Assembly (NCBI GenBank): GCA_036526195.1
Contig: DATCYZ010000033.1
Coordinates: 110,153-174,152 of the forward strand
Reading direction: 5' to 3'
Origin: Burkholderiales bacterium
Lineage (GTDB): Bacteria > Pseudomonadota > Gammaproteobacteria > Burkholderiales > SG8-39
DNA length: 64,000 nt
Of this stretch, positions 53,409-63,976 are shown piece by piece; within the stretch, counting starts at the first letter, position 1, and each line of letters starts with the position of its first letter. The notes under the pieces are model-generated. The model made no database searches. It was not told the DNA's origin and saw nothing but the letters and a program-made list of their open reading frames with translations. Both the position numbers and the translations under genes were made by a program.

Positions 53409-54050
53409 ATGAATGCGCCGCCGGTCGCCGCCGAGAGGCTCTCGGATGCGCAGATGCTCAAGCTTGGCGCGCACGGCATCACGCGCAGCTTCCCGAAGCA
53501 GACGATCGTCCTCAGCGAAGGCGACGAGACCGACGCGCTCTACATCGTCATCGAGGGCCGCCTCAAGGTCTTCGTCGCCGACGAGCACGGCCACGAGATC
53601 GTGCTCTCGACGCTCGGGGCGGGCGAATACTTCGGCGAGATGGTGCTCGACGGCGGGCCGCGCTCGGCCTCGGTCATGACGCTCGAGCAAAGCCGCCTGC
53701 TGACCGTGCCCAAGGCGCAGTTCCGTGACTTCGTCACGAAGAACCCGGCTTTTGCGCTGAGCCTGATCGACAAGTTGATCCGGCGCGTGCGCGCACTCAC
53801 CGCCCACGTGAAGAGCCTCGCGCTGATGGATGTCTACGGGCGCGTGGCGCACCTGCTGCTCGACCTCGCCGAAGAGAAGAACGGCAAGCTGGTGATCGGC
53901 GAGCGCCTGACGCAGCAGGACATCGCCAACCGCGTCGGCGCCTCGCGCGAGATGGTCGGGCGCATCCTCAAGGACCTCGCCGTCGGCGGATATATCTCCG
54001 TGTCCAAGGACGGCATCGTGCTGCACCGCAAACCACCGCTGCACTGGTAG
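53409..54050 (+). CDS. CRP/FNR-family transcriptional regulator
   Basis: cNMP cassette GEYFGEM..DGGPRSASV; HTH LTQQDIANRVGASREMVGR. Confidence 0.93.
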   Translation: MNAPPVAAERLSDAQMLKLGAHGITRSFPKQTIVLSEGDETDALYIVIEGRLKVFVADEHGHEIVLSTLGAGEYFGEMVLDGGPRSASVMTLEQSRLLTVPKAQFRDFVTKNPAFALSLIDKLIRRVRALTAHVKSLALMDVYGRVAHLLLDLAEEKNGKLVIGERLTQQDIANRVGASREMVGRILKDLAVGGYISVSKDGIVLHRKPPLHW

Positions 54051-54373: not shown

Positions 54374-54421
54374 CCGTTTCGTTCCGGCGCCGCTATACTT
54401 CACCGCCTCAGGGGGGGTTGC

Positions 54422-54577
54422 ATGGTCCGTGGCGGTGGACGCCGCAGGGTCTTGTTCTGCACCGGTGCGCTGCGCGCAGCGACCGTCGCGCCTCGTTTTC
54501 ATCTGCAGCCAAACCTCTGTCCCGAGCGCGCGAAGACGTCGCGGATCCTGCCGTGCGCCGACCGGGTGCCCGAATGA
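54422..54577 (+). pseudogene. Internally deleted / decayed relic of an ABC_sub_bind-type SBP gene
   Basis: Manual translation MVRGGGRRRVLFCTGAL...PRFHLQPNL...ILPCADRVPE*; last 21 nt GCCGACCGGGTGCCCGAATGA match the SBP 3' ends (GCCGACCGGGTGATCGAATGA); TATACT and a G-rich RBS upstream. Confidence 0.55.
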
Positions 54578-54677
54578 GGCGAGCGAGCAGCAGGGGCGCG
54601 GGCGCGGTCGAAAAGTTCCTGATCGGCAACAGTTCCGGCGCCGCGGCACCGGCGCTCCGATTCGCGCCGGGCGCCCA

Positions 54678-55661
54678 ATGACAACGCGGCGGGAGACGCT
54701 CAGGCTGGTGGCGGGCATCGGACTCTGTGCTGCGCTGGGCGCTCAGGCTGCCCGCTTGCCGCGGATCGGCTACCTGCTCCTCGGGCCGGTGTACGACACG
54801 CCCTCGGTCGAGCGGCGGGCGTTTCTCGATGGCTTGCGCGCGCTTGGCCATGTTGCCGACCGCACGATCGAGATCATCTACAAGTCCGCGGAGGGCGAGA
54901 CGGTTTTCCTCGATGCCACGATCCGGGAACTGATCGACCTGCGCCCGGATGTGATCGTTGTCAGCAGTGCGGTGACGCTGCTTGCGCTGAAAAAGGCGAC
55001 TCGCACGATTCCGATCGTCATGCTGGCGATTGGCGATCCGGTCGGGGTCGGCGCAGTTGCGTCGCTTGCGCGCCCCGGTGGAAACATTACGGGCGTGTCC
55101 TTCATTTCGAGCGATCTCGCGCAGAAGCGCGTGGAACTGTTGCGCGCGGTCGCGCCGCGTGCCCGGACGCTTGCGGTCCTCTGGGATATGCGTAACGCCA
55201 ATACACGGAACGAGTCGAAGGCGGTTGAGGTGGCGGCGCGCGGGCTCGGTTTTTCAATCCGACCGATGCCCATCCGGTCCGAGACGGACCTTGCGGCCGC
55301 GCTTGTCGCACTTGCGAGGAATCGACCGGATACCGTTTACGTCTGCTTCGAAGGCCAGATCGTCGGTTCGCACGGTGCGATCCTTGCCCAGTTCGGACTG
55401 GATAACCGCCTTCCCATGGTCGTGGGCTGGACGCCCCTCGTCGATGCCGGCGGCCTGATCGCCTACGCGCCCCACATGCCGGCGATCTTCGCGCGCGCCG
55501 CCTATTTCGTCGACCGCATCCTGAAAGGCGCGCGACCCGCCGAACTGCCGATCGAGTTGCCGACCCGGCTCGAGTTGGTGGTCAACCTGAAGACCGCCAA
55601 GGCGATCGGTACCGCGATCCCGGGCGATCTGCTGCTGCGCGCAGACCGGGTGATCGAATGA
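54678..55661 (+). CDS. Orphan ABC-type substrate-binding protein (ABC_sub_bind-like), copy 1
   Basis: RR-containing signal, RIGYL, GDPVGVGAVASLARPGGNITGVS, KRVELL, GGLIAY, VDRILKGARPAELPIELPT, LLLRADRVIE. Confidence 0.9.
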   Translation: MTTRRETLRLVAGIGLCAALGAQAARLPRIGYLLLGPVYDTPSVERRAFLDGLRALGHVADRTIEIIYKSAEGETVFLDATIRELIDLRPDVIVVSSAVTLLALKKATRTIPIVMLAIGDPVGVGAVASLARPGGNITGVSFISSDLAQKRVELLRAVAPRARTLAVLWDMRNANTRNESKAVEVAARGLGFSIRPMPIRSETDLAAALVALARNRPDTVYVCFEGQIVGSHGAILAQFGLDNRLPMVVGWTPLVDAGGLIAYAPHMPAIFARAAYFVDRILKGARPAELPIELPTRLELVVNLKTAKAIGTAIPGDLLLRADRVIE

Positions 55662-56626
55662 AACGTCGAGCGTTTCTGGCGGCCGCCTGCGTGCTTGCCG
55701 CCATGTCGCGGGGTCACGCGCAGTCCGTGCGGCGCCCGCCACGGATCGGAACCCTGAACTTCGGTGCGCCGCCTGCGCCCGGCGGCTCGGCAGACCCGAT
55801 CGAACGGCACCTCCGGATGCTCGGCTACGCGGAGCCCGGGCAGGTGGTGTTCGTACGGCGCTATGCGTCTGGCGATCGTTCGCACTTTCCCCGGCTTGCC
55901 GCCGAACTGCTGCGCGCGGACCTCGATCTGATCTTCACACCCGGATCCGACGTGGCGCGTACCTTCGCGCGGACCGACGTGCGTGTTCCGGTGGTATTCG
56001 TGGTCAGCGACGATCCGGTGGCGACCGGCCTGGTGCGCAGTCTCGGACGTCCGGCCGGCCGGTTCACCGGCATCTCCCTGATGTCACCCGAGCTCGGCCC
56101 CAAGCGGCTCGAACTGCTCGTCGAGGCATTGCCGCGCGCACGCAAGGTGGCCGTGTTGTATGACGAGAACCATGCGAAATACCTGACGGAGATGCGCGCG
56201 CCGGCGGCCAGCATGGGGATCACCCTCCTGCCCATCCGGTTCGACACCGTGGCCGATTTCGAGCCCGCATTCGCGTCGGCGAAACAGGGCGGCGCGGCCG
56301 CGATGTTCGTCGCGCCGAACCGGTTCACGCTCGCCTACGCTGCGCGCCTCGCCGCCCTCTCGATCGAGCACGGCATACCCGCGATCTCGGCCTACGACAG
56401 CTTTGCTGCGGCGGGCGGGCTGCTGTCTTACGGCCCGGTCGTCGATGACGCAGCCGCACGTGCCGCGTCGATCATCGACCGGATCCTCCGGGGCGCTGAT
56501 CCGGCCGATCTGCCGGTCGAGCAGCCGCCGCGGATCGCGCTCACGCTGAACCGGAAGGCCGCCCGCGCGCTCGCTATCGAGTTGCCAGCTTCGATGCTGC
56601 TGCGCGCCGACCGGGTGATCGAATGA
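55658..56626 (+). CDS. Orphan ABC-type substrate-binding protein (ABC_sub_bind-like), copy 2
   Basis: MKRRAFL twin-arginine-like signal, DPVATGLVRSLGRPAGRFTG, KRLELL, GGLLSYG, DRILRGADPADLPVEQP, LLRADRVIE. Confidence 0.9.
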   Translation: MKRRAFLAAACVLAAMSRGHAQSVRRPPRIGTLNFGAPPAPGGSADPIERHLRMLGYAEPGQVVFVRRYASGDRSHFPRLAAELLRADLDLIFTPGSDVARTFARTDVRVPVVFVVSDDPVATGLVRSLGRPAGRFTGISLMSPELGPKRLELLVEALPRARKVAVLYDENHAKYLTEMRAPAASMGITLLPIRFDTVADFEPAFASAKQGGAAAMFVAPNRFTLAYAARLAALSIEHGIPAISAYDSFAAAGGLLSYGPVVDDAAARAASIIDRILRGADPADLPVEQPPRIALTLNRKAARALAIELPASMLLRADRVIE

Positions 56627-56710
56627 ACAGACGCCTCGACCCGTGCCGCGCGCTTGTGGCTTCCCGATGATTCCCCTACCCTCTGCCCCACGGGCTTGGG
56701 AGGGCGCGTC

Positions 56711-59700
56711 ATGGCAAAAAGCTCGAAGGCGAAGCGGCAGCGACGGACCAAGGCGCAAGCGCCTCAGCGTCCCCGACAAAAGGTGAAGCCTACGACCCGC
56801 GACGGAGGTCTGCCTGCCCCGGAGGCCGCGCTGCTCGAGGCCCTGCCCGCCGCCATCGCGGTCTTCGACGCCGATCGACGGCTGGCGGTCTTCAACACCG
56901 CATTCGCAGAACTCGGGCTGTTTCCGAAGTCGCTGCTCAAACCGGGTCGCGCATTTTCCGAGTTCCAGCGCCGCGATGCGAGCCTGAGGCGCCGCGGGCC
57001 GGGGCCACACGAGGTGTCGCTTCCCGGTGGCCAGGTGCTGCAAGCAAGCAAGCGATCGTTGCCGGGGCGCCAGATCCTGCTTTGCTACGAGAACGTGACG
57101 GCGGAACGGCTTGCCGCGGAGCGCCTCGATCTCGTGACCCGGGCGAGCAGCGAGGGCACCTACGACTGGGACATCGTCAACGATACGATCTACTACTCGG
57201 ATCAGGTCTTCGAGGCGATCGGCCTGCGTCGCAAGGACGTGCCCGACGCAACGGCCTGGTACGAACGCATCCATCCTGACGACCAGCCCCGCTATAGCGA
57301 ACGCCTGCGCGCCCATTTCAGGGGCGAAACCGACCGCTTCGAAGTCGAAATTCGCTTCCGCGGCCCGAGGGGCGATTGGCGCTGGGCGCGACAGCACGGG
57401 ATCGGCATCCGCGATGCGCGGGGCAAGGTCGTGCGCATGGTCGGTTCCACCGGCGATATCGATCGCCTGAAGCGGCTCGAGCAGGCGCTCGCCGAAAGCG
57501 AGGCGCGCTACGCGCTCGCCACACGGGCCGCCACCGAAGGCATCTACGACTGGAACGTCGGAACCGGCGAGCTGTACCTGTCCGATCGCGCCAAGACGTT
57601 CTTTGCGATCAAGGGTCGCAAGCTCACGCCGGCGGTCTGGAGTTCGCGGATTCATGCGGAGGACCTTCCCGCATATCGCGCGGTGATGGCGCGCTACTTC
57701 AAGGGCGAGATACAGCAGTTCGAGCACGAGTACCGCATTCAAAGCGCATCCGGCAGTTACAACTGGATCCAGGATCGTGCCGTGGCAGAGAGAGGCGAAT
57801 CCGGACGCGTGCAACGGCTGGTCGGCGCGATCACCGACATTAGCGCGCGCAAGCAGGCCGAGATCGAACTCCTGCAGGCGCACGACGAGACTGCCGCCGC
57901 CCTCGAACGGCAGACGGCGACCGCGGAAATCCTGCGCGTCATCTCGGACTCGCCGACCGACGTGGCGCCGGTGCTCAAAGCCGTCGCCGAGCGGGCAGCA
58001 CGCATCTGCGACGCGCACACCGTGGACATTGTTCTGGCAGAGGGTCAATCGATGCGCATGTCGGCATCGGTCGGGAACATCGGCCGACCGGGTGCGGCCG
58101 AATCGATCCCCCTCAGCCGTGAAACCGTCATGGGTCGGGCGATTGTTGACCGGGCCGTTGTGCAGGTCGTGGATCTCCAGAATCCGCCGGAGGGCGAATA
58201 CGCTCTTGGGCGCGAGCTTGCGCGCAAGTACGGCCATCGCACCATCCTCGCGGTTCCGCTGCTGCGCGAAGGCCGCGCCCTCGGAGCCATTCTCGTGCGC
58301 AGGATCGAGGTGCGGCCGTTTGAAGACAAGCACATCTCGCTCCTGCGGACGTTTGCCGATCAGGCTGCAATCGCGATCGAGAACGTGCGCCTGTTCAACG
58401 AGACGAAAGAGGCGCTCGAGCGGCAGACGGCGACCGCGGATGTGCTAAAGGTCATCAGCAGCTCGGTTTCGGACACCAAGCCGGTGTTCGAGAAGATCAT
58501 CGACAGCTGCCAGGGGCTGATTCCCACGACGGACATCGTCGGGTTCACGTTCGATGATCGTTCTTTCGTGCATGTCGTCGCCACGCGCGGTCCGATGGCG
58601 GACGCGTTTGCAAACCACGCCGCGCGTCCGGTCGAAGAGACCTTCCTGACGCAGGCGCTGCATGAGCGGCGGGTGCGGGTCTATCCCGACCCGATCAACG
58701 GCGACGACGTGCCCGAACGCCTGCGCAAGTTGAGCGAGCAAATCGGCAACTTCTCCTGGGCCGTGGCGCCGATCCTGACCGAAACCCGCTGCGTCGGTTT
58801 TTTCACCATGACACGCAAGCAGGGTGAGGTGTTCGCAGACAAGGAGATCGATCTCCTCAAGGCCTTCGCCGACCAGGCGGCGATCGCGATCCAGAATTCG
58901 CGCCTGTTCAACGAGACGGAAGAAGCGCTCGAGCGTCAGACGGCGACCGCGGAGATCCTGCGGGTGATTTCCAGCACGCCAACCGATACGCAACCGGTTT
59001 TCGACGCGATCGCGGCCAGCGCCAGACGGCTGTGCGACGCAGGTGCCGTCGTCGTGCTGGGCTACGACGGACGGGTGATTGACGTCGCCGCCCTCGACTC
59101 CGTCAACGTGGAAGGGGCGCAGCAACTGCGCTCCGCGTTCCCCATGCCAGCCACGGGCGGGAGCGTATCCACCCGCGCGATCCTCAACCGCGAGGTCACG
59201 CAAGTCCCCGACGTGCTTGAAATCGAGAACTACGTCCTCGGCACCGCAGCCAACGCGATCGGCTATCGCAGCGTCCTGGCCGTCCCCATGCTGCGCGAAG
59301 GCCAACCGATCGGAGCGATCACTGTCACGCGCGCCATACCGGGCCTCTTCCCCGACCGGCAGGTCGAACTTCTCAGGGCCTTCGCCGACCAGGCCGTGAT
59401 CGCGATCGAGAACGTGCGTCTGTTCAACGAAACGAAGGAAGCGCTCGAGCGGCAGACGGCGACGGCCGAGATCCTCGCGGCGATGAGCGATTCGATGACG
59501 GACGCGCAGCCCGTGTTCGACGCCATCGTGCGCAACCTGCGCCGGCTGTTCGACACGCGCTTCGCGGTCGTTCAGCTGCTGAACGGGGAGACGATCGAGA
59601 TGCCGGCCGCGGACGGCGAGCCCGGGTTCGAGCGGCTCCGCGATCACTACCCCCGGCCCCTCGACCAAACCACGATCGGCGCCCAGACCATGTTGGCGAG

Positions 59701-61213
59701 ACGCGTCATCCAGTGCTCTCCGGTGATCGGCAACCCCGAGGCTGCGATCGGCACGCAGGCGTTCGCCCGCGAGTTCGGCTTCAACGCCGCGCTGTTCGCG
59801 CCGATGATCCGCGGCGAGGCGGTGATTGGCGTGATCGGCATCGCGCATCGCGAGCCGCGGGTCTTCGACGATGATGAAGTCGCGCTCATCAAGGCGTTTG
59901 CCGATCAGGCGGTGATCGCGATCGAGAACGTGCGGCTGTTCAACGAACTTAAATCGCGTACCGAAGCGCTCACCCGCTCGGTCGGTCAGCTCACCGCGTT
60001 GGGTGAAGTCGGCCAGGCGATCAGCGCGACACTGGACGTCGAGACGGTGCTGAAGACCATCGTTTCGCACGCCATGCGCCTGACCGGACTCGACGCAGGG
60101 GTGATATACGAATACGACATCGCCTCCGAGGGGTTCCAGTTGCGCGCGTCCGAGAATTTCGACGATGAAACCGTGGGCACGCTGCGTGGTGCGGAGTTGC
60201 GCGTCGGTGAGGGCGCGGTCGGCACCAGCGTCTCGGCGCGCAAGCCGACGCAGGTGCCCGACACCCACGCGCCCGGGTACCCGGCGCGCCTGCGCGAGAT
60301 GCTCGATGGCCCCGGGTTCCGGGCCGTGCTGGCGGTGCCGCTCCTGCGCGAAGAGCAGATTATTGGCGCGCTGATGATGCTGCGTCGCGCGCCGGGTCTG
60401 TTTCCAACGGAAGTCGTCGAGTTGCTCAGCACCTTCGCCTCGCAGTCGGCGCTGGCGATGCAGAATGCGCGCCTGTTCCGCGAGATCGGGGACAAGGGTC
60501 AGCAGCTCCAGGTCGCGAACCAGCACAAGTCGGAGTTCCTCGCCAACATGTCGCACGAACTGAGGACGCCACTGAACGCCATCATCGGCTTCTCGGAAGC
60601 GCTCGACGAGCGCTACTTCGGCGAGCTGACCGACAAGCAGGCCGAGTACGTGAAGGACATCCATGGCTCCGGCAAGCACCTGCTCTCGCTCATCAACGAC
60701 ATCCTCGACCTGTCCAAGATCGAGGCCGGGCGCATGGACCTCGACCTTGCCGAGTTCGACCTGCCCGGGGCGATCGACAATGCGCTCACACTGGTGCGAG
60801 AGCGCGCGCAGCGCCACGGCGTGCGCCTCGAGCATGAACTCGATCCGGCGCTCGGAACGGTGACGGCCGACGAGCGCAAGGTGAAGCAGATCCTGCTCAA
60901 CCTGCTCTCGAACGCGGTAAAGTTCACGCCGGAGGGCGGGCGCATCACGGTGCGCGGGAGGCCGAACGGAAACATGATCGAGGTGGCCGTCGTCGACACC
61001 GGCGTGGGCATCGCGCCCGAGGACCAAGCCGCGGTGTTCGAGGAGTTCAAGCAGGTCGGCAACGACGTGGCCGCAAAGGCACAGGGCACGGGGCTCGGCC
61101 TCGCCCTCACGAAACGCTTCGTCGAACTGCACGGCGGCACCATCGGCCTGGAAAGCGCGCCGGGCAAGGGATCCACCTTCATCTTCACGCTGCCCTTGCG
61201 CGGTGGCGAATGA
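56711..61213 (+). CDS. Cytoplasmic sensor histidine kinase with ~3 PAS, 5 GAF, HisKA and HATPase domains
   Basis: PAS motifs (IHPDD, EGIYDW), repeated LERQTATA...FADQAxIAIENxRLF GAF units, SHELRTPLN, NLLSNAVKF, DTGVG, GTGLGL; no TM helix seen. Confidence 0.93.
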   Translation: MAKSSKAKRQRRTKAQAPQRPRQKVKPTTRDGGLPAPEAALLEALPAAIAVFDADRRLAVFNTAFAELGLFPKSLLKPGRAFSEFQRRDASLRRRGPGPHEVSLPGGQVLQASKRSLPGRQILLCYENVTAERLAAERLDLVTRASSEGTYDWDIVNDTIYYSDQVFEAIGLRRKDVPDATAWYERIHPDDQPRYSERLRAHFRGETDRFEVEIRFRGPRGDWRWARQHGIGIRDARGKVVRMVGSTGDIDRLKRLEQALAESEARYALATRAATEGIYDWNVGTGELYLSDRAKTFFAIKGRKLTPAVWSSRIHAEDLPAYRAVMARYFKGEIQQFEHEYRIQSASGSYNWIQDRAVAERGESGRVQRLVGAITDISARKQAEIELLQAHDETAAALERQTATAEILRVISDSPTDVAPVLKAVAERAARICDAHTVDIVLAEGQSMRMSASVGNIGRPGAAESIPLSRETVMGRAIVDRAVVQVVDLQNPPEGEYALGRELARKYGHRTILAVPLLREGRALGAILVRRIEVRPFEDKHISLLRTFADQAAIAIENVRLFNETKEALERQTATADVLKVISSSVSDTKPVFEKIIDSCQGLIPTTDIVGFTFDDRSFVHVVATRGPMADAFANHAARPVEETFLTQALHERRVRVYPDPINGDDVPERLRKLSEQIGNFSWAVAPILTETRCVGFFTMTRKQGEVFADKEIDLLKAFADQAAIAIQNSRLFNETEEALERQTATAEILRVISSTPTDTQPVFDAIAASARRLCDAGAVVVLGYDGRVIDVAALDSVNVEGAQQLRSAFPMPATGGSVSTRAILNREVTQVPDVLEIENYVLGTAANAIGYRSVLAVPMLREGQPIGAITVTRAIPGLFPDRQVELLRAFADQAVIAIENVRLFNETKEALERQTATAEILAAMSDSMTDAQPVFDAIVRNLRRLFDTRFAVVQLLNGETIEMPAADGEPGFERLRDHYPRPLDQTTIGAQTMLARRVIQCSPVIGNPEAAIGTQAFAREFGFNAALFAPMIRGEAVIGVIGIAHREPRVFDDDEVALIKAFADQAVIAIENVRLFNELKSRTEALTRSVGQLTALGEVGQAISATLDVETVLKTIVSHAMRLTGLDAGVIYEYDIASEGFQLRASENFDDETVGTLRGAELRVGEGAVGTSVSARKPTQVPDTHAPGYPARLREMLDGPGFRAVLAVPLLREEQIIGALMMLRRAPGLFPTEVVELLSTFASQSALAMQNARLFREIGDKGQQLQVANQHKSEFLANMSHELRTPLNAIIGFSEALDERYFGELTDKQAEYVKDIHGSGKHLLSLINDILDLSKIEAGRMDLDLAEFDLPGAIDNALTLVRERAQRHGVRLEHELDPALGTVTADERKVKQILLNLLSNAVKFTPEGGRITVRGRPNGNMIEVAVVDTGVGIAPEDQAAVFEEFKQVGNDVAAKAQGTGLGLALTKRFVELHGGTIGLESAPGKGSTFIFTLPLRGGE
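57902..59947 (+). repeat. Periodic conserved GAF-linker DNA repeats inside the kinase gene
   Basis: ~89-nt near-identical blocks at 58352-58440, 58865-58953, 59381-59469; half copies at 57902-57927 and 59897-59947; period 513-516 nt. Confidence 0.85.
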
Positions 61214-63600
61214 GACCGAACGGCCCGGACCGGATGATCTGGCGCGGCGGCCTGTACCGGAAGTACGTCATCCTGATCATCTCGCTGGTGTCGGTCACGC
61301 TGCTGGTGAGCGGGGCGATCGGCATGTACCGCACCTGGCTGGAAACGCGCAGTGCCCTTCTGCTGATCGCGCGCGGCGAGGCGGCCACTGCCGCGGTGCG
61401 CATCGAGCAGTTCGTGCGCGAGATCGAGAACCAGATCGACTGGACTTCGCTGCCGCAGGTCGTGGAGGGCGTCAACCCGCTGGAAGCGCGCCGCTTCGAT
61501 TACTGGAAGCTGCTTCGCCTGGTGCCGGCAATCACGGAAGCCACCTGGATCGACGGCAAGGGAATCGAACAGCTGTCGGTCTCGCGCCTGAAGATGGAGG
61601 CGCTTGGCGCCGGGGCAGATCGTTCAGCGGAGCCGGCTTTCCAGGTCGCGAGCACCGGCAAGACCTGGTTCGGGCCGGTGTACTTCCGCAAGGAGACCGA
61701 GCCCTACATGGCGATCGCCATCCGGGCCGGGCGCGCCGGGGCCGGCGTCACGGTGGTCGAGGTGAACCTGAAGTTCATCTGGGAGGTGGTGCAGAAGATC
61801 CACGTCGGCAAGACCGGCTATGCCTACGTCGTGGACGCCAACGGTCTGCTGGTCTCGCACCCGGACATCAGCCTGGTTCTCCAGAAGACCACGCTCGCGG
61901 GCTTGCCGCAGGTGAGAGCCGCGCTTGCGTCGCCGGCCTCGCCGGGGACCGAGACGCCGCCCGACGCAAGCGAAGCCGTGGATCGCGCGGGACGCGAGGT
62001 GCTGTCGGCCTGGGCGAGGATCGATGCGCTCGGCTGGGCGGTATTCGTCGAGCAGCCTACCCAGGAGGCGTACGCGCCGCTCTATGCCACCGTGATGCGC
62101 ACCGCGCTGCTGCTCGTGGCCGGGCTGCTGCTGTCGATTCTTGCCGGGTTCGTCTTCGCGCGGCAGATGATCGGTCCGATCCGCAAGCTGCAGGAGGGCG
62201 CCGCGGCAATCGGCGGCGGCGACCTTGATCAGAAAATCGACGTGCGCACCGGTGACGAGTTGCAAGCGCTGGCCGAGCAGTTCAACGCCATGGCGGCGAA
62301 GCTGGGCGAGTCCTACGCGGGCCTCGAGCGCAAGGTGGAGGCGCGCACTGCGGAATTGCAGGAGTCGCTAGACCAGCAGCAGGCCTCGGCCGAGGTGCTG
62401 GGGGTGATCAGCAGCTCGATCTCGGACACCGCGCCGGTGTTCGACAAGATCATCGAAAGCTGCGAACGGCTGTTTTCGGGGCGGATCGTCGGGCTGAACC
62501 TCGTCGGCGAGGACGGGCTGATCCGCATCGGCGCCTACCACGGCCCCCACCGGGAGGACTTCGAGCGGATCTTCCCGCTGCCGGTGACGCGCGACTCCGG
62601 CTCCGGGCTTGCGATTCTCGAGCGCCGGGTGATCCACTACCCGGACGTCGACAACGGCGAGGAGGTGCCGGCCGCCACGCGGCAGGGCTGCCAGTCGATC
62701 GGCATCCGCGCGGCGATCTTCGCGCCGATGCTGTGGGAATCGCGCGGCCTGGGGGCGATCTTCGTCGGCCGCGACCACGCGCGCGGGTTCTCGGAAAAGG
62801 AGGTGGCGCTGCTGCGCACCTTCGCCGACCAGGCCGTGATTGCCATCCAGAACGTGCGCCTGTTCCACGAGATCGAGGAAAAGAGCCACCAGCTGGAGGT
62901 GGCCAACCAGCACAAGTCCGAGTTCCTCGCCAACATGTCGCACGAGCTGAGGACGCCGCTGAACGCCATCATCGGCTTCTCGGAAGCGCTCGACGAGCGT
63001 TATTTCGGCGAGCTGACGGACAAGCAGGCCGAGTACGTGAAGGACATCCACGCCTCCGGCCGGCACCTGCTTTCGCTCATCAACGACATCCTCGACCTTT
63101 CGAAGATCGAGGCCGGGCGCATGGACCTGGACCTCGCGGAGTTCGACCTGCCGGCGGCGATCGACAACGCGCTGACGCTGGTGCGCGAGCGCGCGCAGCG
63201 CCACGGGCTCGCCCTGTCGCGCGAACTCGATCCCGCGCTGGGCACCGTGCGCGCGGACGAGCGCAAGCTGAAGCAGATCCTGCTCAACCTGCTCTCCAAC
63301 GCGGTGAAGTTCACGCCCGAGGGCGGCAGCGTTTCGGTGCACGCGAAGCCGATTAACGGCATGATCGAAGTCGCGGTGACCGACACCGGCGTCGGCATCG
63401 CACCCGAGGACCAGGCCGCGGTGTTCGAGGAGTTCAAGCAGGTTGGCAACGACTACACGCGCAAGGGCGAAGGCACCGGGCTCGGGCTCTCGCTCACCAA
63501 ACGCTTCGTCGAACTGCACGGCGGCGAACTGCGCCTCGAAAGCACGCCCGGCAAGGGCTCCACCTTCACCTTCACGCTACCGGTGCGCCATGGCCAATGA
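61210..63600 (+). CDS. Membrane sensor histidine kinase: TM-dCache-TM-HAMP-GAF-HisKA-HATPase
   Basis: Two TM helices, GPVYFRKETEPYM and GYAYVVDANGLLVSHPD Cache motifs, HAMP (DELQALAEQFNAM), GAF, SHELRTPLN; start 61210 or 61234. Confidence 0.93.
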   Translation: MRPNGPDRMIWRGGLYRKYVILIISLVSVTLLVSGAIGMYRTWLETRSALLLIARGEAATAAVRIEQFVREIENQIDWTSLPQVVEGVNPLEARRFDYWKLLRLVPAITEATWIDGKGIEQLSVSRLKMEALGAGADRSAEPAFQVASTGKTWFGPVYFRKETEPYMAIAIRAGRAGAGVTVVEVNLKFIWEVVQKIHVGKTGYAYVVDANGLLVSHPDISLVLQKTTLAGLPQVRAALASPASPGTETPPDASEAVDRAGREVLSAWARIDALGWAVFVEQPTQEAYAPLYATVMRTALLLVAGLLLSILAGFVFARQMIGPIRKLQEGAAAIGGGDLDQKIDVRTGDELQALAEQFNAMAAKLGESYAGLERKVEARTAELQESLDQQQASAEVLGVISSSISDTAPVFDKIIESCERLFSGRIVGLNLVGEDGLIRIGAYHGPHREDFERIFPLPVTRDSGSGLAILERRVIHYPDVDNGEEVPAATRQGCQSIGIRAAIFAPMLWESRGLGAIFVGRDHARGFSEKEVALLRTFADQAVIAIQNVRLFHEIEEKSHQLEVANQHKSEFLANMSHELRTPLNAIIGFSEALDERYFGELTDKQAEYVKDIHASGRHLLSLINDILDLSKIEAGRMDLDLAEFDLPAAIDNALTLVRERAQRHGLALSRELDPALGTVRADERKLKQILLNLLSNAVKFTPEGGSVSVHAKPINGMIEVAVTDTGVGIAPEDQAAVFEEFKQVGNDYTRKGEGTGLGLSLTKRFVELHGGELRLESTPGKGSTFTFTLPVRHGQ

Positions 63601-63976
63601 AACCATCCTGATCGTCGAAGACAACGACAAGAACATGAAGCTTGCCCGCGACGTGCTGCAGGCAAAGGGCTACCGCACGCTGGAGGCCGTCACGGCGGGC
63701 GAAGGCGTGGCCGCCGCGGCGCAAAAACCGGACCTCGTGCTGATGGACATCCAGCTGCCCGATTTCAGCGGCATCGAGGCGCTCGGCAAGCTGCGCGCGG
63801 AGGCGGCCACGAAGGACATCCCGGTGATTGCCTTCACCGCCTCGGTGATGGAGCACAACCGCCACCAGATCATGGCCGCCGGGTTCGACGCCTTCATCTC
63901 CAAGCCGATCAACCTGAAGGAGTTCTTCGCCACGATCGCGGCGACGCTGGCGAAGCGCGGCGGGGGCACATCGTGA
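63590..63976 (+). CDS. Single-domain response regulator (DivK/CheY-like receiver)
   Basis: ILIVEDN, LVLMDIQLP, IAFTA, ISKPI. Confidence 0.93.
   Translation: MANETILIVEDNDKNMKLARDVLQAKGYRTLEAVTAGEGVAAAAQKPDLVLMDIQLPDFSGIEALGKLRAEAATKDIPVIAFTASVMEHNRHQIMAAGFDAFISKPINLKEFFATIAATLAKRGGGTS

Follow-up and report, generated by a model that had tools for sequence, protein, structure and literature searches.

The 64,000-nucleotide stretch of a Burkholderiales bacterium genome analysed here (contig DATCYZ010000033.1; hereafter the window) contains two tandem genes for substrate-binding proteins (SBPs), SBP1 and SBP2, which are accompanied by short open reading frames (ORFs) and lie between a gene for a Crp/Fnr-family regulator and genes for sensor kinases (Table 1). 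Both proteins belong to family PF04392 (E 1.7e-44 and 152.7 bits for SBP1, E 1.1e-33 and 117.2 bits for SBP2, against a gathering cut-off of 25.9) and match the solved chains 3LFT, 3LKV and 6HNI by sequence. In an operon of the conserved layout Crp-(SBP)n-dCache kinase-receiver, these two genes make up the variable front part. The genome of the window (G000; 3.17 Mb, 82% complete) holds five full SBP genes of this PF04392 array type. Below, L-numbered loci are regions from other genomes, and C-numbered contigs belong to G000.

Five ORFs of 51, 35, 327, 322 and 15 aa are linked by four -4 ATGA overlaps (at 54574, 54678, 55658 and 56623), and three copies of a 21-nt block, GCCGACCGGGTGCCCGAATGA at 54557-54577, GCAGACCGGGTGATCGAATGA at 55641-55661 and GCCGACCGGGTGATCGAATGA at 56606-56626, each end in such an overlap. 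Every coordinate that the original prediction gave for the blocks and for the frames started by their ATGA proved correct, and so did its proposal that a gene end provides the start of the next unit, the -4 overlaps at the window junctions being exact; it should be kept in mind that a -4 overlap by itself imposes an ATG at each TGA and an A-initial second codon (K/R/N/T/I/M/S). The degenerate block has four exact copies in the genome, three at this locus and one ending an SBP gene on C99, and eight copies with at most 3 mismatches, one of which is a second relic on C99. SBP1 and SBP2 are only 33% identical as proteins, yet the last 36 nt of their genes agree at 31 positions. The 21-mer is lineage-restricted, since 3 genomes out of 301 contained it in a pattern search across the phylum. 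The array was reproduced by contigs of other soil, sediment and estuary runs with 0-1 differences per piece listed, so that it is no assembly artefact; RNA runs contained only 0.08-0.16 of the sequence words. The translational chain stops at the 15-aa ORF; the gene that follows has its own ribosome-binding site (56698-56704).

Table 1. Features of the SBP array and its flanks (window coordinates)
Feature	Position	Strand	Basis or remark
Crp/Fnr-family regulator	53409..54050	+	Pfam cNMP_binding and HTH_Crp_2
Small hydrophobic ORF, 66 aa	54173..54373	+	Translations, alignment, start position
Candidate array promoter: -10 box TATACT (54394-54399), purine-rich ribosome-binding site (54410-54417)	54394..54417	+	Sequence
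51-aa relic ORF (head and tail in a single open frame)	54422..54577	+	Tail matrix and head HMM scores
35-aa spacer ORF	54574..54681	+	Two -4 overlaps, relic stop to SBP1 start
SBP1, PF04392, RR-type signal, 327 aa	54678..55661	+	Pfam; predicted docking on dCache domain
SBP1/SBP2 junction: tail LLRADRVIE, GGTGATC match to anti-Shine-Dalgarno (55649-55655), ATGA overlap, RR head	55628..55675	+	
SBP2, PF04392, 322 aa	55658..56626	+	Pfam
15-aa ORF behind last junction	56623..56670	+	
PAS/GAF-repeat histidine kinase	56711..61213	+	Pfam, synteny
dCache-HAMP-GAF-HisKA sensor kinase	61210..63600	+	Pfam; conserved anchor 3' of array
Stand-alone receiver-domain protein, same operon	63587..63976	+	Pfam, syntenic

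Array units in related genomes

The Crp/Fnr gene is a conserved anchor 5' of the array (with synteny in L197-L200, L066/L253, L093 and L209), and what follows it differs among relatives. L197 and L199 carry two SBP genes, a and b; L198 has an in-frame 48-aa relic of a, then b; L200 has b only and L196 no SBP. A frameshifted relic and five other SBPs are found in L066/L253, an in-frame relic and at least 12 SBPs in L093/L380, and the Crp gene with no SBP within the stretch fetched in L201 and L202. The window has no SBP cluster in common with seven orthologous loci at 60% identity or more. SBP1 is closest to SBP-b, the kinase-proximal SBP of relatives (46-49% identity), and SBP2, of another subtype, has its nearest relatives (61-65% identical) amid different flanking sequence. 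Two orthologous hotspots carry largely non-overlapping SBP sets; a second array hotspot (L246, L252, L291, L295, L300) lies beside CoxD/CoxE-like AAA/VWA and xanthine-dehydrogenase-like genes, and its SBP and TA (toxin-antitoxin) content is largely different across the five genomes.

An initial scan of the genome collection with a 26-nt pattern gave 110 stretches, and of the 78 segments bounded by two ends, 52 proved to be entire SBP genes joined by exact overlaps. The set was enlarged to 264 distinct SBP genes (207 clusters at 60% identity or more), where the -4 overlap was exact in 93 of 102 adjacent SBP pairs. A cluster was shared on one or both sides in 27 junction comparisons, which are not independent of each other: in 4 of them both sides matched, in 23 only one. 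Adjacent SBPs are barely closer to each other than random pairs (median 41% versus 38% identity), the nearest relative was the array neighbour in 14 of 144 cases (both for 230 genes), and unit order can be reversed between arrays (c11>c2 in L253, c2>c11 in L256). Gene content thus varies, from zero to 12 or more SBPs among relatives, and units change neighbours, as had been anticipated; judged from these comparisons of sequence, units move as wholes.

The arrays could instead have grown by local tandem duplication and decay, their shared ending reflecting protein conservation only, with no exchange between arrays. The tail does form part of a conserved predicted interface (see below), a few arrays contain recent local duplicates (c4 c4 c4 in L061, c1 c1 in L207), and unit order is stable in the related genus g120, with no variants among the joints listed from eight runs. 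However, array neighbours are unrelated, clusters recur with other neighbours and in other order, the two hotspots largely fail to overlap and the DNA is constrained beyond protein need; with the 23 of 27 junction comparisons largely refuting it, we regard this explanation as quite improbable.

The same distinctive signal-peptide DNA recurs in L049, L097, L291 and L252 (4584-4694), attached to SBP bodies from different clusters and to a relic of 110 nt; heads are thus exchanged independently of bodies.

The junction as coding sequence and as crossover region

The sensor kinase 3' of the array contains a dCache_1 domain (E 3.3e-19, 69.8 bits against 45, the matched stretch being shorter than the curated cut-off length). 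Of the 20 relative regions fetched, 17 bear SBP genes, and the same dCache kinase lies 3' of these genes in 13; in 7 the last SBP starts the kinase via the same -4 overlap. When SBP1 (25-327) was modelled in complex with the dCache domain (40-296), the ipSAE was 0.66, while the best of three controls gave 0.00; of solved pairs, 116 of 157 reach this mark, as do 2 of 215 mismatched ones, figures that carry over only roughly to the alignments of our own used here. Contact agreement was at least 81% and partner pLDDT at least 86. The modelled interface comprises SBP1 residues 129-132, K150 and 289-298 and tail residues 317, 320 and 321, and its columns are better conserved than the rest (0.66 versus 0.49 in the SBP, 0.88 versus 0.72 in the kinase, from the alignments used for the model); SBP2 retains 14 of 26 interface residues. 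A conserved SBP face that includes tail residues 317-321 is thus predicted to bind the dCache domain. A relative, P0002 (94.7-kb contig), has an 88% identical sensor domain; the number of GAF domains in the dCache kinase differs among relatives.

At the other end of the SBPs, an RR at the alignment start is nearly invariant; RRxFL is the twin-arginine signal consensus. None of the five G000 SBP genes has a BPD_transp_2 permease within 25 kb (of 28 PF02653 matches in G000, the nearest is 25 kb from an SBP gene and none is on C99). Nor was an ABC permease found in the array flanks, where 61 of 90 ORFs were scanned; ATPases or partners elsewhere in the genome were not searched.

At the nucleotide level, the R/E-V-I-E codons of the tail read GGTGATC-GA-ATG, which is complementary to what we take to be the 3' end of 16S rRNA (the 16S end of G000 itself was not found). 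In a test on 87 genes found by protein search, the match of tails to the anti-Shine-Dalgarno sequence averaged 6.2 nt, versus 4.7 nt after synonymous recoding (maximum 5.2 in 300 runs), and the tail Val codon is GTG in about 75% of tails versus 36% in bodies. GGTGATC-GA-ATG is likely to be the ribosome-binding site and start of the next unit. The tail would then have three jobs, as predicted kinase-docking surface, likely Shine-Dalgarno sequence and -4 stop/start overlap, and the first two largely explain the conservation of the block. As for the possibility, raised with the original prediction, that protein constraint alone accounts for the motif, the predicted interface is conserved, but constraint at the DNA level exceeds protein need.

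The whole junction, 55-85% identical between paralogues, is made up of the stop/start core with some 150 nt of conserved tail before it and some 70 nt of signal codons after it. L136 and L139 (98% identical in nucleotides) are one whole unit apart and their first junction is identical out to +82, which places the crossover of this loss, the best-resolved case, inside the signal-peptide codons; in L140 the switch falls near +39. A 9+3-nt core gave 301 hits, and 65 of these retain less than 150 nt of SBP tail, with a continuous range of lengths from 12 to 145 nt that peaks at 15-29 nt (some nine of the shortest probably match by chance). Tails go with the upstream gene up to the stop, and heads associate with either side. 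There is thus no fixed crossover base such as integrons have. The proposal that the 21-nt block is the crossover site is not supported, in view of the continuous tail lengths, the crossover in signal codons and the other explanations of block conservation, and the 21-mer is probably not the recombination site. An apparent sharp 5' edge at -24/-27 was a product of the 26-nt scan pattern and became a continuum with a 12-nt pattern.

A recombinase encoded elsewhere might still use the junction as an att-like site, which would make this a new integron-like system with SBP and TA cassettes. Such a site would suit the ORF-tight inserts described below (toxin stop mostly 1-41 nt from the junction), junctions with non-SBP DNA on both sides (L298, L300, L352), the clustering of remnants at 15-29 nt, a synonymous bias of tails that is also present in uncoupled genes, and the failure of tails to accompany the downstream gene in 11 comparisons. 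It is hard to reconcile with remnants of continuous length and crossovers reaching +39 to +82, and no hairpin was detected at 80 junctions (mean z +0.3; window junctions z +1.8 to -1.3). G000 has only two PF00589 matches (C7 and C57), neither on array contigs, which we take to be XerC and XerD, and G173 (96% complete) likewise has two; the genome-wide search did not extend to the serine, IS110, HUH and reverse-transcriptase families. Among the 61 of 90 flank ORFs scanned, none beside a multi-SBP array encodes a recombinase; a single IntI-like gene lies 3.6 kb from an SBP gene that stands alone. We consider an att-like site unlikely, though conceivable, and the description of the array as integrase-free stands for the flanks scanned and a genome of this completeness. 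A candidate inverted repeat or attC-like hairpin across the junction (CGCGCCG...CGGCGCG) was rejected, since it folds no better than shuffles; CGG-CGC, moreover, is the commonest RR codon pair in gene bodies too.

A related explanation is a fossil integron, in which SBP and TA cassettes arrived with attC sites that were later lost while arrays fused. PF04392 SBPs do appear to travel as true integron cassettes as well: attC-like elements of 90-91 nt (GCCCAAC...GTTAGGC) lie about 45-140 nt past the SBP stop in L100, L115 and L121. Several array-rich genomes encode longer IntI-like tyrosine recombinases, one confirmed with Phage_int_SAM_4, and the antisense TA inserts resemble superintegron content. 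However, no attC-like element was found in the window between 53000 and 62000, or in the arrays of 20 regions by a strict pattern, which is insensitive, since it missed elements of the L100 type. The arrays lie, moreover, inside a conserved signalling operon whose kinase itself begins at the same overlap, and we find a fossil integron very improbable.

Relic frames, antisense inserts and flanking genes

The 51-aa ORF had been described as a signal-like head joined to a decayed SBP C-terminus, and both of its ends bear this out. Its tail (34 nt) scores 27.6 bits on the SBP-tail matrix and is outscored genome-wide only by five SBP ends and the C99 relic (next position, 21.0 bits), and its head scores 9.2 bits on the signal-peptide HMM, which ranks it among the best 0.6% of 6000 background peptides with an ATGA start. 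The ORF sits in the slot of SBP-a (L197/L199) and of the 48-aa relic of L198; on this sequence evidence it is a head-plus-tail relic of a lost SBP unit in the first array position. The 35-aa ORF, with a head in the top 2.5% of background, is a weaker case, and the chance of an open in-register frame of 35 codons is about 0.68/3; it is likely to be a relay ORF and possibly a second decayed head. The head score of the 15-aa ORF (13.6%) is no better than chance. Three of the proposed 3-5 units are therefore supported, with the 35-aa ORF as a weak fourth and no evidence for the 15-aa ORF, so that the range was overstated.

Head-plus-tail relics occur in frame in L093, L192, L198, L065 and C99, and out of frame in L205, L261, L359 and L066. 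The one on C99 (4862-4942) is an in-frame 26-aa SBP head and tail, ATGA-joined behind a full SBP gene. L254 (8247-8306) and L262 (6227-6295) contain 60-70 nt tandem duplications of the SBP tail starting from the stop/start overlap.

Related arrays also hold non-SBP inserts at their junctions, mostly type II TA operons (PIN with AbrB/MazE or RHH, BrnTA, ParE, nucleotidyltransferase) or AAA-DUF4143 genes on the opposite strand, whose last stop is a few bases from the junction (for toxins, mostly 1-41 nt). We analysed 22 inserts of at least 400 nt in 13 families, 19 of them (10 families) of this antisense TA/AAA kind. In 15 of the 19 (9 of the 10 families), the frame that starts from the junction ATG/GTG has no stop for 473-1238 nt and then terminates precisely within the next -4 overlap, be it that of the next junction or of an SBP start. 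As for the four misses, two complete via a second -4 restart, one ends 8 nt short and one is broken; the 3 of 22 inserts outside the antisense kind have no relay. Three of the relay frames had no Pfam match. As a control we used 55 non-array PIN loci (60 fetched, 3 excluded at contig edges and 2 in arrays), where an antisense frame of at least 600 nt was present in 12 and of at least 680 nt in 4, counting any frame; entry and exit register would each reduce these numbers by a factor of three. The relay count has a binomial p of 3e-4 even with a null of 0.33. The chain in the window (51 aa, 35 aa, SBP1, SBP2) fits the relay pattern. Within one family of genomes, frames tend strongly to be continuous, but this is no fixed rule.

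Target-site duplication at TA inserts was considered and rejected, flanking tails and heads being different in most cases; a 10-12-nt repeat was seen only in L255 (15960) and L252 (5668). Junction or tail remnants of 21-25 nt lie beside PIN TA loci with no SBP adjoining in L352 (near 2237), L345 (near 1917) and L343 (near 2692). Array-rich genomes of 3-4 Mb have 15-44 PIN-domain genes each.

Between the Crp gene and the array, the region 54394-54417 likely holds the array promoter, with its -10 box and a ribosome-binding site; TATACT or TAGAAT stands at the equivalent position in L066 and L197-L200. A hydrophobic ORF (about 30-66 aa) precedes this promoter in 6 of 6 orthologous loci (the window, L066 and L197-L200) and is shorter in the other five than in the window. 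On the 3' side, the PAS/GAF kinase (1500 aa, PAS-PAS-(GAF)5, with GAF units repeating every 513-516 nt) sits between the array and the dCache kinase, whose start its stop overlaps (GAATGA); it is absent from that position in L197-L200.

Proposed mechanism and known systems

From the above results, we think it probable, though well short of certain, that the locus is an integrase-free, translationally chained sensor-cassette array, in which a variable row of SBPs is predicted to dock on one kinase, units are moved by host recombination and the chain is kept by selection. Conserved junctions would let host recombination (of the RecA type or by microhomology and slippage, not site-specific) add, drop or swap units while frame and ribosome-binding site stay intact, and microhomology between signals and tails would give internal deletions and thus stubs. 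Selection would retain those products in which the chain of translation still reaches the kinase and the distal SBPs. Relics and spacer ORFs (those at 54422-54577 and 54574-54681 are examples) may persist since ribosomes can travel along them and polarity is avoided. Once through this frame filter, antisense TA operons would penalise loss of the array, as in superintegrons. The attC-like elements on some SBP genes elsewhere may represent one route of arrival.

A number of observations weigh against this account. The order a-b is stable within genus g120, and no credible junction variant of this organism was found among the joints listed from eight runs, which gives no sign of present-day activity; five candidate variant joints had sides of 21-30 nt at 93% likeness and fit SBP genes of other organisms. 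The complex score may echo solved SBP-dCache complexes, and the interface conservation, which shares its alignments with the complex model, is not independent of it. Tails of coupled and of uncoupled genes show an equal synonymous bias, which would not be expected from a Shine-Dalgarno role that is purely a present-day one. Taken alone, the relay within the window is weak (a chance of about 0.2 per ORF), and in a held-out set none of three new antisense TA inserts was an exact single frame (open for 497 of 829, 710 of 809, and 1007 nt), while three further inserts were unrelayed, one being a sense-oriented HigBA-like pair (named by eye). Finally, some junctions lie between two TA inserts or beside TA without an SBP (L298, L300, L352, L345), which, like the 15-29-nt peak of remnants, is also compatible with a recognised site.

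Beyond the window, these arrays may be a general, integrase-free counterpart of integrons, an extension that we put forward only tentatively. One coding junction would serve as docking codons, ribosome-binding site, start and recombination handle, and SBPs would be plug-in receptors for one kinase across arrays and species. Antisense TA operons would lock the array and be admitted mainly if their reverse strand is readable, giving selected but protein-meaningless overlapping ORFs of 150-410 codons. An integron-like repertoire of exchangeable units, TA stabilisers and ribosome hand-on could then arise without an integrase or an att hairpin. In the relay frames, selection would favour an antisense frame because it can be translated and not because of its protein, a concrete example with implications for polarity in long operons and for the origins of overlapping genes. 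The predicted common docking face, in turn, suggests a likely sensory role for the PF04392 proteins of uncultured bacteria from soil and sediment, a very large orphan portion of the family.

Several known systems share parts of this organisation. Sedentary chromosomal integrons, including the Vibrio superintegron, likewise have exchangeable single-gene units and TA units behind one promoter (predicted here from its motif) and short ORFs that hand ribosomes on, as the relay frames would do here. TA cassettes with their own promoters are described as stabilising the superintegron array (10.1101/2023.11.17.567518), and ORF-11 at attI1 of class 1 integrons as a sequence-indifferent ORF that passes ribosomes on by translational coupling (PMC8876359). 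Unlike integrons, however, the arrays studied here have no intI in the flanks scanned, no attC hairpin and no fixed crossover; all their units belong to one paralogous family and are joined within coding sequence, and the sense frame is usually open through antisense TA operons.

SBP-stimulated kinases of the dCache type are known from LuxP/LuxQ, HptA/HptS and CBP/ChiS, according to PMC8050422, whose main text has no occurrence of the term ABC_sub_bind. As in these pairs, an SBP gene adjoins a dCache kinase gene here, direct docking being predicted only; whereas they have one SBP per kinase, the arrays present a variable row of 30-45% identical SBPs with a conserved face. The ligands on record for PF04392 in PMC10443332 are Trp, Tyr and Phe. 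The solved proteins (3LFT, 3LKV, 6HNI) are of the same family as the array SBPs by Pfam and by sequence; the latter differ in having no BPD_transp_2 permease within 25 kb.

Tandem paralogue arrays that undergo birth and death through unequal crossing-over, with translational coupling by -4 ATGA overlaps, are known as well. The present arrays resemble them in the change of copy number through recombination between conserved ends and in the stop/start overlap. They differ in their units, which are not local duplicates but ancient, unrelated subtypes that have moved among arrays and genomes, and in that foreign antisense operons are probably filtered for frame continuity. In the literature covered (mostly titles and abstract openings, with subscription journals thinly represented), no description of PF04392 arrays or of antisense TA relay frames was found. 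Each component thus belongs to a known family, and the system fails the tests for an integron; what is new is the insertion of antisense TA operons with relay frames into related arrays.

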